This document shows, piece by piece, positions 34,840 through 43,405 of a stretch of DNA of 43,405 nt. The position numbers and the translations under genes were made by a program. This DNA is from a virus (Duplodnaviria > Heunggongvirae > Uroviricota > Caudoviricetes): IMG/VR virus record IMGVR_UViG_2563366824_000007. One strand, given 5' to 3'. Below the pieces are notes generated by a model. That model searched no databases. It saw only the letters and a program-made list of their open reading frames with translations, and was not told the DNA's origin. How positions within the stretch are numbered: position 1 is the stretch's first letter; the number at the start of each line of letters is the position of its first letter.

Positions 34840-35781
34840 TCACCCCCTGAATCCTGCCGGGATCTGGCTGTAGTCCACGTTGTCGTAACTGGATTTGAAG
34901 TACGGGTCTTCGCGTTTTTCGGTGTACGTGCTGACGGACGGTGATAAGCGCAGGGAAAGCTCATCCCATTTTTCCCGCAACTTCGACGGGCTGAGCACGT
35001 TACGGCACCAGAACGGATCGCGGTTGACGCGGCTGTACATCTCGCAGATTTGTTTGTGAGTACGACCATCCTGCACACACATCAGGCGAATTTCGTTTGC
35101 CCAGGCTGTCCAGTTCGGTTCTTTGGGACGAACCACCTCGCCGTCACATTCGGCGGCCTGCTCGTACAGGGCGATGATTTTTTTCCAGAGCCACTGTGCG
35201 CAGGTCAAATCATCCTGCGTTCCCCACTGGCGCTTTTTAGGGCTGAATACAACCGCATCAGGATGGCGAGTTAAAAACTCCTGTTCAGCCGTCTGCGTGT
35301 CCGGTTGCGAAGCGTCCGGACGAGAAGTATTTTTATCTGACGGATCATGTTTTGATTTTACTGACGGATCCCCGCCAGATTCTGACGGGTGAAAACCCGC
35401 TTTTTTGCCAGATTTCGACGCATCAAATTTTGACGGGTCAGATTTTGATGCGTCAGATTTTGACGGGTCAGAATCTGACAGTTGAGAAAATGCCGCTGCC
35501 TGAAGCTTCGCAACGTTAAGCTGATAAACATTCGACGCATTGCGGTTACCCTGGCGACGCGCCTTACGCGTTAACCAGCCTTCTGCTTCCAGCCGTGCGA
35601 TAGCCGTTCTGACGGTACTCATCCCCGCGCCAATCTGGCGGGCAATGGTTTCAATTGATGGCCAGCACACACCTTCGTCATTACTGAAATCAGCCAGGCG
35701 GGCCATAATTGCCACGCTGGATAACTTCATGCCTGATGCAGCGCAACCATCCCATACATAGCCGGTTAATTTAGTGCTCAT
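34840..35781 (-). CDS. Replication initiation protein (lambda O-like organiser)
   Basis: N-terminal HTH region, central repetitive linker (DPSKSDASKSDPSKFDASKS) encoded by iteron-like DNA repeats, conserved C-terminal domain. Confidence 0.75.
   Translation of the reverse strand: MSTKLTGYVWDGCAASGMKLSSVAIMARLADFSNDEGVCWPSIETIARQIGAGMSTVRTAIARLEAEGWLTRKARRQGNRNASNVYQLNVAKLQAAAFSQLSDSDPSKSDASKSDPSKFDASKSGKKAGFHPSESGGDPSVKSKHDPSDKNTSRPDASQPDTQTAEQEFLTRHPDAVVFSPKKRQWGTQDDLTCAQWLWKKIIALYEQAAECDGEVVRPKEPNWTAWANEIRLMCVQDGRTHKQICEMYSRVNRDPFWCRNVLSPSKLREKWDELSLRLSPSVSTYTEKREDPYFKSSYDNVDYSQIPAGFRG
35351..35482. repeat. Iteron array (putative replication origin) inside the O-like gene
   Basis: About 7 tandem ~15-bp units of consensus CAGATTTTGACGGGT, e.g. 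35375..35390, 35424..35438, 35439..35453, 35454..35468. Confidence 0.7.
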
Positions 35782-40638: not shown

Positions 40639-40991
40639 ATGTTTTCGAAATGGAAGGGTTTCTTCGTGGGAGATGTGTACCGCGAGATCTGAAAGTAAAT
40701 GAAACAGATGCTGAATACCTAGTGCGTAAATTCGATGCGCTTGAAGCTAAATGTGCAGCACAGGAAAACAAAGTAATACCAGTGTCAACTGAACTGCCAC
40801 CAGCAAATGAAAGTGTTTTGTTATTCGATGCTAACGGAGAAGGCTGGCTAATTGGCTGGCGTTCTCTCTGGTACACCTGGGGACAAAAAGAAACCGGAGA
40901 ATGGCAGTGGACATTTCAGGTCGGGGACCTTGAAAACGTCAATATAACTCACTGGGCAGTAATGCCAAAAGCACCGGAGGCTGGAGCATAA
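40629..40991 (+). CDS. yfdS: YfdS-like protein
   Basis: 120 aa; overlaps the yfdR stop; Trp-rich C-terminus. Confidence 0.7.
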   Translation: MRMNVFEMEGFLRGRCVPRDLKVNETDAEYLVRKFDALEAKCAAQENKVIPVSTELPPANESVLLFDANGEGWLIGWRSLWYTWGQKETGEWQWTFQVGDLENVNITHWAVMPKAPEAGA

Positions 40992-41296
40992 TGACCACTT
41001 TTACCGACAAAGAACTGATTAAAGAAATTAAAGAGCGTATCAGCAGCCTTGACGTGCGAGACGATATTGAGCGCCGTGCTTATGAAATCGCACTCCTATC
41101 TCTGGAAGTAGAACCAGATGAACGCGAAGCTTATGAATTATTCATGGAAAAGCGTTTCGGTGACTTAGTAGATCGTCGGAGAGCAAAAAACGGCGATAAC
41201 GAATACATGGCATGGGATATGACTCTCGGTTGGATCGTCTGGCAGCAACGAGCTGGTATCCATTTTTCAACAATGTCACAGCAAGAGGTGAAATAA
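40991..41296 (+). CDS. yfdT: YfdT-like protein
   Basis: 101 aa; start overlaps the yfdS stop. Confidence 0.7.
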   Translation: MTTFTDKELIKEIKERISSLDVRDDIERRAYEIALLSLEVEPDEREAYELFMEKRFGDLVDRRRAKNGDNEYMAWDMTLGWIVWQQRAGIHFSTMSQQEVK

Positions 41297-41352
41297 TGGA
41301 GCCATACAGCCTCACACTCGATGAGGCCTGTCAGTTTCTTAAAATATCCTGA
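41296..41352 (+). pseudogene. Truncated AlpA/Xis-like excisionase remnant (ypdJ-like)
   Basis: 18-codon ORF MEPYSLTLDEACQFLKIS* resembling the N-terminus of AlpA-family excisionases, cut short by a stop. Confidence 0.45.
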
Positions 41353-41392
41353 TCTACCATCGCCGTCATAGAGCGTATTTTTATTACCTGAT

Positions 41393-41408
41393 TTGCAGGT
41401 TCGATTCC
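41393..41408 (+). repeat. Orphan 16-bp copy of the argW T-arm segment (TTGCAGGTTCGATTCC)
   Basis: Exact match to tRNA positions 1045..1060, located about 300 bp inside attR just upstream of torI. Confidence 0.6.
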
Positions 41409-41427
41409 CTATTCGGAGATAGCACTC

Positions 41428-41628
41428 ATGCAACACGAACTACAGCCTGATTCACTGGTTGATTTGAAATTCATCATGGCTGATACTGGCTTTGGTAAAA
41501 CCTTCATCTATGACCGGATTAAGTCCGGCGACCTGCCAAAAGCCAAAGTTATCCACGGGCGAGCAAGATGGTTATATCGTGACCATTGTGAATTCAAAAA
41601 TAAGCTCTTAAGCCGCGCCAATGGGTAA
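41428..41628 (+). CDS. torI: Excisionase / recombination directionality factor TorI
   Basis: 66 aa MQHELQPDSLVDLKFIMADTGFGKTFIYDRIKSGDLPKAKVIHGRARWLYRDHCEFKNKLLSRANG (winged-helix Xis-like); GGAG ribosome-binding site; adjacent to attR. Confidence 0.85.
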   Translation: MQHELQPDSLVDLKFIMADTGFGKTFIYDRIKSGDLPKAKVIHGRARWLYRDHCEFKNKLLSRANG

Positions 41629-41701
41629 AATAGCGGGTAAAATATTTCTCACATCTAAAAAACACCATTCCAATCAATCCCCTGCTGCTTCAAGTAGATG
41701 T

Positions 41702-41716
41702 CTGCAGGGGACACCA
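41702..41716. repeat. attR core, 15-bp CTGCAGGGGACACCA
   Basis: Exact direct repeat of the argW 3' end (1069..1083); flanking bases differ. Confidence 0.8.
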
Positions 41717-42157: not shown

Positions 42158-43405
42158 CTATATTGCTGAAGGTACAGGCGTTTCCATAACTATTTGCTCG
42201 CGTTTTTTACTCAAGAAGAAAATGCCAAATAGCAACATCAGGCAGACAATACCCGAAATTGCGAAGAAAACTGTCTGGTAGCCTGCGTGGTCAAAGAGTA
42301 TCCCAGTCGGCGTTGAAAGCAGCACAATCCCAAGCGAACTGGCAATTTGAAAACCAATCAGAAAGATCGTCGACGACAGGCGCTTATCAAAGTTTGCCAC
42401 GCTGTATTTGAAGACGGATATGACACAAAGTGGAACCTCAATGGCATGTAACAGCTTCACTAATGAAATAATCCAGGGGTTAACGAACAACGCGCAGGAA
42501 AGGATACGCAACGCCATAATCACAACACCGATAAGTAATGCATTTTTTGGCCCTACCCGATTCACAAAGAAAGGAATAATCGCCATGCACAGCGCTTCGA
42601 GTACCACCTGGAATGAGTTGAGATAACCATACAGGCGCGTTCCTACATCGTGTGATTCGAATAAACCTGCATAAAAGACAGGAAAGAGTTGTTGATCAAA
42701 AATGTTATAGAAAGACCACGTCCCCACAATAAATATGACGAAAACCCAGAAGTTTCGATCCTTGAAAACTGCGATAAAATCCTCTTTTTTTACCCCTCCC
42801 GCATCCGCCGCTACACACTGGTGACCCTTATCTTTAAAACGCATGTTGATCATCATAAATACAGCGCCAAATAGCGAGACCAGCCAGAAGTTGATATGGG
42901 GACTGATACTAAAAAATATGCCGGCAAAGAACGCGCCAATAGCATAGCCAAAAGATCCCCAGGCGCGCGCTGTTCCATATTCGAAATGAAAATTTCGCGC
43001 CATTTTTTCAGTGAAGCTGTCAAGCAAACCACATCCCGCCAGATACCCCAGGCCAAAAAAGAGCGCCCCCAGAATTAGACCTACAGAAAAATTGCTTTGC
43101 AGTAACGGTTCATAAACGTAAATCATAAACGGTCCGGTCAAGACCAGAATGAAACTCATACACCAGATGAGCGGTTTCTTCAGACCGAGTTTATCCTGAA
43201 CGATGCCGTAGAACATCATAAATAGAATGCTGGTAAACTGGTTGACCGAATAAAGTGTACCTAATTCCGTCCCTGTTAATCCTAGATGTCCTTTCAGCCA
43301 AATAGCGTATAACGACCACCACAGCGACCAGGAAATAAAAAAGAGAAATGAGTAACTGGATGCAAAACGATAGTACGCATTTCTGAATGGAATATTCAGT
43401 GCCAT
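42158..43405 (-). CDS. cscB: Sucrose permease (LacY-family MFS oligosaccharide:H+ symporter)
   Basis: 415-aa 12-TM protein starting MALNIPFRNAYYRFASSYSFLFF...; ATG at the window end; csc genes are known to sit at the argW locus in some E. coli. Confidence 0.75.
   Translation of the reverse strand: MALNIPFRNAYYRFASSYSFLFFISWSLWWSLYAIWLKGHLGLTGTELGTLYSVNQFTSILFMMFYGIVQDKLGLKKPLIWCMSFILVLTGPFMIYVYEPLLQSNFSVGLILGALFFGLGYLAGCGLLDSFTEKMARNFHFEYGTARAWGSFGYAIGAFFAGIFFSISPHINFWLVSLFGAVFMMINMRFKDKGHQCVAADAGGVKKEDFIAVFKDRNFWVFVIFIVGTWSFYNIFDQQLFPVFYAGLFESHDVGTRLYGYLNSFQVVLEALCMAIIPFFVNRVGPKNALLIGVVIMALRILSCALFVNPWIISLVKLLHAIEVPLCVISVFKYSVANFDKRLSSTIFLIGFQIASSLGIVLLSTPTGILFDHAGYQTVFFAISGIVCLMLLFGIFFLSKKREQIVMETPVPSAI

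Follow-up and report, generated by a model that had tools for sequence, protein, structure and literature searches.

The window analysed here is a 43,405-nucleotide stretch of DNA (IMG/VR virus record IMGVR_UViG_2563366824_000007, Caudoviricetes) that holds the tRNA gene argW and a prophage of ~40.6 kb. Near the right end of this prophage, the 16-mer TTGCAGGTTCGATTCC (41393-41408) repeats a segment of the argW T arm just upstream of torI, the gene for the recombination directionality factor (RDF, or excisionase). A preliminary description of the window had read this copy as a relic of serial or nested integration at argW. We found instead that the 16-mer is a conserved piece of the torI leader, carried within free phage genomes, and that its core, which we call the T-loop box, is conserved to a much higher degree than either the flanking sequence or the excisionase. 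In all likelihood the stretch is the normal right end of an argW prophage of the KplE1/HK620/Sf6 type, holding two unrelated things: a mosaic joint and a T-loop box in the torI leader. Among the non-coding sequences before TorI-family excisionase genes, the best conserved is a T-loop copy of the phages' own target tRNA. This sequence has long been present in K-12, HK620 and Sf6, but as a tRNA-derived conserved leader element it is apparently new; no mention of a tRNA-like box or of its family-wide conservation was found in the literature searched, which did not take in every key paper on the module.

A T-loop box in the leaders of TorI-family genes

The tRNA-Arg(CCU) gene argW occupies 1009-1083 and is the only tRNA gene that ARAGORN finds in the window (anticodon CCT); like all features below unless stated otherwise, it lies on the plus strand. 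It is the integration target, and its 3' part is regenerated by the phage. The copied segment, 1054-1069, comprises the end of the variable region, the 5' strand of the T stem, the T loop and the first two bases of the T stem's 3' strand, and it forms the B arm of attL, directly 5' of the 15-bp core CTGCAGGGGACACCA. A repeat search placed the core at 1069-1083 in attL and at 41702-41716 in attR (family D6), and found the exact 16-mer twice in the window, at 1054-1069 and 41393-41408 (family D15). With two or fewer mismatches allowed, 0.01 chance matches are expected, and none of 100 shuffles gave two or more; the match to argW is real and beyond chance. The T-arm segment and the core abut in argW, where they have base C1069 in common, whereas at the right end they stand 293 bp apart with torI between them. 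The preliminary description had noted this splitting of contiguous tRNA segments, and ARAGORN, the repeat search and the sequence bear it out, together with the positions it gave for the 18-codon stub, the exact 16-mer, torI and the 15-bp attR core.

We gathered TorI-family RDF loci from phage records, from one genome per species and from look-ups of distant homologues (locus and protein handles from this survey are given in parentheses). A box with the consensus (C)AGGTTCGATTCC(C) is present in ~18 of ~33 distinct TorI-family modules across Enterobacterales, always in sense orientation and 4-13 nt (mode 6) 5' of the GGAG of the RDF gene. In the window, the family-conserved core GTTCGATTCC occupies 41399-41408 and is followed by the conserved C at 41409, by the torI Shine-Dalgarno (SD) sequence GGAG at 41415-41418, 6 nt past the box, and by torI itself (41428-41628), the final prophage gene before attR. 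K-12 TorI, HK620 HkaC and Sf6 gp18 are all 100% identical to the product of torI. Besides E. coli, the box-bearing bacteria are Serratia fonticola (L094), Citrobacter (L095), Pantoea (L097, L101), Edwardsiella (L100, L102), Enterobacter (L113-L115), Phytobacter (L120), Hafnia (L207) and Klebsiella aerogenes (L208, L209), and the box-bearing phages include Salmonella phage g341c and the Erwinia phages Midgardsormr38 and phiEt88. The 16-mer of E. coli is the box plus four extra bases that match the tRNA (TTGC); its nearest relatives read TTCCAGG... and are one base off.

Within an alignment of 14 lineages, GTTCGATT is invariant save for one substitution. Mean pairwise identity reaches 96% over GTTCGATTCC, compared with 38% in the 12 upstream columns, 47% between box and SD, and 58% over the first codons. 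The box is also kept where the RDF has diverged strongly, as in phiEt88 (36-39% identical to TorI) and a metagenomic module (P0118; 30%). Because it stays 13/13 identical between lineages with RDFs that are only 30-40% alike, the box does not look like a neutral relic and is probably under selection. Two modules carry it in tandem: Midgardsormr38 has two copies, ACAGGTTCGATTCCCGTCAGGTTCGATTCCC, with a 17-bp period (L003 2486-2516), and the metagenomic module whose RDF is 30% identical to TorI has two copies, CAGGTTCGATTCCCTGGTTCGATTCCC, with a 13-bp period (L210/L211 ~460-485). The two modules are unrelated and the duplications are independent.

Across the phages compared, the integrases are 62-83% identical and the RDFs 36-88%; the corresponding values are 73% and 36-39% for phiEt88, and 62% and ~47-51% for g341c. 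The RDF sites and the arm-type sites change class along with RDF divergence (GTTCG/GGGTAAAA as against GATGTAACC/GCGGGCATAA). In phiEt88 the P' repeats are of the GATGTAACC type and the arm sites read GCGGGCATAA, in place of GTTCG and GGGTAAAA, yet the box is retained; its presence does not depend on RDF or arm-site specificity. Every TorI-family match that we found has an argW-type core as its target. When IMG/VR was scanned with an integrase profile to look for modules with another tRNA as target, only E. coli relatives at 98-100% identity came back, and the Pseudomonas homologues of TorI have a different gene order and a convergent integrase.

The exact 16-mer occurs in the phage genomes of HK620, Sf6 and IME10 and in K-12, and the homologous segment is also found in Kapi1. 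In the virion genome of IME10, the order is xis remnant, terminator, exact 16-mer and torI. Since the 16-mer is present in free phage DNA, it predates integration here and was not made at this chromosomal argW. The IMG/VR prophage copies that contain the torI start tell the same story, with the exact 16-mer in 48 of 51, single substitutions in the other three, and at least three different left-hand contexts in front of the box. Absence of the 16-mer from other copies of this prophage end, which the preliminary description had named as evidence against its own view, is not what the comparison gave: the 16-mer is nearly universal, which points to a conserved functional element and not to a scar.

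Many database entries for TorI (P0004-P0016, P0020-P0025) are N-terminally extended gene calls of 83-141 aa, whereas the true protein has 66 aa. An open reading frame evidently runs through the leader and the box into torI in some contexts, and these calls should not be read as longer isoforms.

The recombination module and the mosaic joint

The recombination functions of the window lie at both ends of the prophage. The P' arm of attL (1089-1179), mapped onto the published two-block description, contains five predicted TorI sites: CAGTTCGC (1089-1096), CAGTCCGC (1109-1116), CGGTTCGT (1152-1159), TGGTTCGC (1162-1169) and CAGATCGT (1172-1179). The published attL sites form blocks of 8+12+8 nt and 8+2+8+2+8 nt with GTTCG, GTCCG or GATCG cores (PMC2951348 section 8), and the sites of the window match exactly both the spacing (12 nt within the first pair, 2 nt within the last three) and the cores. 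Directly downstream of argW, and in the same orientation, intS (1245-2402) encodes a P4-type tyrosine integrase with the Pfam domains Arm-DNA-bind_3, Phage_int_M and Phage_integrase and 62-83% identity to the integrases of the compared phages. At the other end, the P arm and core of attR as used in vitro span 41605-41716, beginning with the left primer CTCTTAAGCCGCGCCAATGG (41605-41624), and the arm-type repeats GGGTAAAAT lie at ~41623-41643, located from the annotation of HK620 attP and from sequence. The core is identical over 15 bp at both ends, with a 16th base that is T at attL and G at attR; in K-12 it was reported as 16 nt (PMC2951348).

The integrase, TorI, core, five TorI sites, arm-type repeats and orientation relative to argW are the same as in the KplE1 (CPS-53)/HK620/Sf6 module studied by Panis, Ansaldi and co-workers (PMC2951348, PMC3509656). 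With all of the defining features in place, the locus is, at the sequence level, a full member of this argW recombination module. KplE1 of K-12 is a 10.2-kb remnant whereas the module of the window closes a full-length prophage of ~40.6 kb, but the module itself is no different. It is well studied and this copy is ordinary.

To the left of the module, the last intact gene of an SfV-like early-left segment is a yfdT-like open reading frame (40991-41296), annotated as yfdT in E. coli genomes. The ATG of the xis stub (41296-41352) overlaps its TAA. The stub reads ATG GAG CCA ... ATA TCC TGA, that is, 18 codons (MEPYSLTLDEACQFLKIS) and a stop. Over 41200-41352 the window is 96-97% identical to the orf28/xis 5' region of SfV, SfII and SfIV (blastn against phage genomes), and this SfV-type homology stops at 41352. 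Full-length SfV Xis is a protein of 116 aa with the N-terminus MEPYSLTLDEACDFLKISRPT and a Pfam HTH_17 match at residues 6-36. From this homology and the start of SfV Xis, we identify the stub, which the preliminary description had called AlpA/Xis-like, as codons 1-18 of an SfV/P22-type xis. A second segment, 41378-41716, is 97-99% identical to HK620, Sf6, Kapi1, HK633 and others (blastn) and takes in the 16-mer; the alignment of IME10 to the window begins at 41283.

Between the stub and the box, at 41353-41392, lies the joint region with a decayed terminator and T-run (CGCCGTCATAGAGCGTATTTTTATTACCTGAT), which marks the left edge of the torI-attP-intS module. At this position a terminator scan found the intrinsic terminator GCCGCCtgatGGCGG followed by T6 in HK620, and IME10 and many IMG/VR prophages have CCGCATcaATGCGG followed by T7. 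The window and K-12 share the decayed version CGCCGTCATAGAGCGTATTTTT, and the scan predicted no terminator at the window's copy. K-12 MG1655 has the same arrangement of stub, 16-mer and torI, but with the ATG of the stub changed to ATA. In K-12 the stub is annotated as the pseudogene ypdJ; the PGAP annotation has no such entry.

A relic recombination joint thus exists between the xis stub and the torI module. The preliminary description was right to place a junction here but went too far in making the 16-mer part of it. Judging from the alignments, stub and 16-mer belong to different mosaic segments with the module's own terminator between them, and there is no tRNA sequence at the joint. In our proposal, the early-left arm of an SfV/P22-like lambdoid phage would have been broken 18 codons into xis and joined to a torI-attP-intS module. 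The box lies within that module, just past the terminator on its left and separated by 6 nt from the ribosome-binding site of torI, and is the E. coli form of an element in the TorI-family leaders of argW-targeting phages.

Truncated 5' ends of P22/SfV-type xis genes (MESHSLTLDEAC... or MEPYSLTLDEAC...) precede the box in four lineages, and their break points are all different: E. coli (window 41296-41352), Salmonella phage g341c (L087 ~1701-1760), Enterobacter adelaidei (L113 ~1411-1450) and Klebsiella aerogenes (L208/L209 ~420-470). Either xis-int-attP and RDF-attP-int modules have been swapped repeatedly at the spot between stub and box, or a single ancient joint has decayed along separate lines in the four lineages. 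The box resembles the boundary sequences of lambdoid mosaics (such as 'bsq2' in the Sf6 record) in that it marks the left edge of a module which phages with no other relationship have exchanged. Unlike these sequences, it is conserved where all of the left-hand sequence differs and no exchange partner is evident.

Origin of the box

The box probably descends from a tRNA or att sequence in the ancestor of the module, because a match of 12-16 nt at this position is not expected by convergence. Against such descent, the resemblance consists of those 12-16 nt of identity, and nothing beyond the box resembles a tRNA.

One route to the present arrangement would be an ancient capture. The ancestor may have had a longer attP copy of argW, with the T arm and the 3' strand of the acceptor stem, into which the RDF gene and the P arm were inserted or duplicated. 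The left-hand T-loop that remained would be the box, and a degenerate second copy would have stayed beside the core. The proposal concerns origin only and is compatible with our explanation of the right end; we regard it as conceivable but doubtful. In its favour, most modules have a T-loop-like copy on either side of the RDF gene, both in direct orientation: the box GGTTCGATTCC, and xATTCGATGTA directly left of TGCAGGGGACA in attP or attR; the degenerate copy reads xATTCGATGTA|TGCAGGGGACA where the tRNA has GGTTCGATTCC|TGCAGGGGACA. Lineages also extend the tRNA identity on different sides, leftward in E. coli (TTGCAGG...) and rightward in Serratia and Pantoea (...CCTG), a pattern that a longer ancestral copy would leave as it decayed. 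However, no intermediate was found, for example a contiguous T arm and core without an RDF gene, and between box and ATG the leader resembles a tRNA no better than ordinary ribosome-binding regions do. Nor can relic status alone explain the 96% conservation of the box. The preliminary description had offered capture of the torI module within an older att site as an alternative to serial integration. If such a capture within an older, longer att copy took place, it must have been long ago, in the common ancestor of all these modules. If the box is only a relic, it records the placement of an excisionase gene inside an older tRNA-like att region.

We also considered the leader as a decayed tRNA 3' end (TGCAGGGGACACCA), but the semi-global alignment scores of 14 lineages lay inside the span of scores given by 67 control ribosome-binding regions from the window, and the idea was set aside.

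The phage side left of the core is T-loop-like in the window (41690-41701) and in attP or attR of L003, L088, L093-L099, L108 and L210. Together with GACACC on the right, the xATTCGATGTA side makes an imperfect inverted repeat around TGCAGGG. This repeat suggests the positions of the core-type sites and of a 7-bp overlap region.

Possible functions of the box and rival explanations

If selection keeps the box, it presumably does so as a cis element that acts on excisionase expression. In the mechanism that we propose, a factor would recognize the argW T-loop sequence as a linear motif, and the one module-encoded candidate that fits every lineage is the core-binding domain of the integrase, which would see the box as a mimic of the attB B arm. 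Bound at the box, a short way before the torI ribosome-binding site, integrase would lower the read-through expression of torI. We name the integrase because the target tRNA and a well-conserved integrase are common to all box-bearing modules; the conserved block, moreover, ends exactly where the B arm meets the core. On these grounds the core-binding domain is the reader that we put first, although with low confidence. More generally, the box may be a functional cis-regulatory element, a copy of the target-tRNA T-loop before the RDF ribosome-binding site, whose tRNA-sequence reader would control how much excisionase is made and, through that, how stable lysogeny is. That reader may be the integrase core-binding domain, as a B-arm mimic would allow, or a tRNA-binding host enzyme acting on the mRNA. 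We hold this proposal tentatively. If the box does have such a function, it offers a concrete 10-bp mutable handle on the control of prophage excision, one that is present in KplE1 of E. coli K-12. The promoter PtorI has been described as non-characterised (PMC2951348, Fig. 1 legend).

Several observations weigh against this proposal. The box is dispensable, with ~15 modules lacking it, and two of these, from Dryocola (L096) and Enterobacter (L112), resemble a precise ~27-bp indel relative to HK620. They read terminator-TTTTTTATTGCCyGGAGG-ATG (L096 ~1465-1500; L112 ~1465-1503), with the upstream terminator and TTTTTTATTGCC retained. A further difficulty is that the C arm of attP has drifted to GATGT(C/A), apparently a better core-type site, while the box keeps the weaker B-type GATTCC. 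A lone half-site would also be unusual as an operator, and the fixed proximity of box and SD may indicate a role at the level of RNA.

In both L096 and L112, the ~27-bp stretch that would hold the box looks cleanly deleted or never inserted, and in L093 the corresponding stretch is flanked by CTGG direct repeats.

An RNA-level reading would have a tRNA-binding factor (TruB, TrmA or a nuclease, for example) recognize the box in the torI leader as a T-loop (GUUCGAUUC), or have the box mask the SD and so tune translation. The sense orientation of the box is fixed, its spacing to the SD is 4-13 nt with a mode of 6, the conserved part consists of two closing G-C pairs and a 7-nt loop, and several minimum free energy (MFE) folds pair UUCC with GGAG. 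We nevertheless consider this unlikely. RNAalifold gave 0 conserved pairs, and T-arm-like helices with 7- or 8-nt loops were paired in 45-54% of cells, no better than in shuffles or slid controls. The MFE z-scores lie near 0 (-0.47 to +0.56), the box has no match in Rfam, and the invariant, argW-specific ATT in the loop would not be expected for generic T-loop readers.

Another regulator that might bind here is TorI itself, with the box (AGGTTCGA) as a sixth TorI-type site for autoregulation of torI. TorI represses PintS through sites with GTTCG, GTCCG or GATCG cores (PMC2951348), PtorI is uncharacterised, and tandem duplication, as seen in two of the box-bearing modules, is typical of RDF sites. 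The box also shares GGTTCG with I3 and I4 of the attL sites I1-I5 (cGGTTCGT and tGGTTCGC). It differs from all five, however, in its flanks, which are A and A where the attL sites have pyrimidines, and in the length of its conservation, which continues 5 nt past an 8-bp TorI site, through ATTCC. Moreover, phiEt88 keeps the box though its P'-arm repeats are GATGTAACC, GCGTTACC and GCGTAAAT and there is no GTTCG anywhere in its attP. The type of box therefore does not co-vary with the P'-arm RDF sites in phiEt88; in HK620, Midgardsormr38 and g341c, which are of the GTTCG type, it matches them trivially. Finally, the box is a single site and TorI binding is described as cooperative. Autoregulation through the box is, in our view, quite improbable. 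To the 'tor box' of TorR, the box bears a resemblance by eye at only ~5/10 positions.

The records of HK620 and Sf6 imply yet another function. HK620 carries the annotations 'promoter, phage integration' and 'cII protein' binding site over TTGCCTGATTTGC, and the Sf6 record places pI at the same position, so that the 16-mer would belong to a pI-type promoter, dependent on cII, from which int is transcribed as lysogeny is established. These annotations were made by analogy to pI of lambda and P22, which is activated by cII (C1), overlaps the start of xis and has the same position before the excisionase start. The likeness does not extend further. The HK620 repeats have the spacing TTGC-N5-TTGC, whereas the canonical cII site is TTGC-N6-TTGC, and in the window and K-12 the first repeat is TTAC (TTAC-N5-TTGC). 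The TTGC repeats are absent from most other lineages while GTTCGATTCC is invariant, and a promoter scan of the window and HK620 found no sigma-70-like promoter over the box. Unlike in lambda and P22, int is served here by a promoter of its own downstream of attP; that of intS has been mapped to the P' arm (PMC2951348). A pI-type promoter at the box is accordingly very unlikely.

Serial or nested integration in this chromosomal lineage, with the 16-mer as a relic att junction and torI in an inner or outer element, can be all but dismissed. The 16-mer and the attR core do adjoin in the same tRNA and a truncated xis lies nearby, and the scars of serial integration in genomic islands and polylysogens likewise place a tRNA-derived repeat inside an element near an att site. 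But those scars repeat the core and the 3' tRNA remainder and bound separable elements. The box is the 5' B-arm segment, it is phage-borne, and it bounds only torI, with no second integrase between the repeats. Its polarity is wrong, in that a B-arm segment 5' of the core is normally left at attL while an attR-type relic holds the core and the 3' tRNA remainder; tandem integration would duplicate that same core/3' segment and not an adjacent, non-overlapping 5' one. Free phage genomes have the same arrangement, other genera conserve the box as well, and stub and 16-mer lie in separate mosaic segments with a terminator between them. On every count that can be tested (core-type repeat, absence from free phage, separable elements), the locus fails to behave as a serial-integration scar. 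We conclude that tRNA-like repeats in a prophage end do not, on their own, indicate serial integration.

The preliminary description had also asked whether excision can use the inner repeat. We built chimeric queries for both products of recombination between the repeats (the argW 5' half, 16-mer and torI leader; and the inner left flank, 16-mer, core and P' arm), and in 5,426 complete E. coli genomes no match (0) covered either junction. Judged by these genomes, the inner repeat is not used for recombination in nature. An attR substrate of 135 bp supports excisive recombination in vitro (PMC3509656 section 3.6), and the left primer from that study maps to 41605-41624, ~200 bp downstream of the 16-mer. 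Because the published substrate starts at 41605, the box is not needed for excision in vitro.

The box was also considered as a fragment of a tRNA gene or pseudogene and rejected: ARAGORN finds argW only, the T stem is not conserved, the leader is not tRNA-like and Rfam gives no match.

Two further features of the window lie outside the module. Four overlapping 30-nt copies at 35409-35483 (repeat family D1) amount to a 15-bp tandem repeat, CAGATTTTGACGGGT, present ~5 times, and these repeats could be replication-origin iterons of the prophage. Downstream of attR, a gene for a LacY-family sugar/H+ symporter (42158-43405, minus strand; Pfam LacY_symp, E 7e-193) runs off the end of the window; it presumably resembles the sucrose permease gene cscB of the csc locus. 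In K-12, dsdC follows torI in place of this symporter gene.

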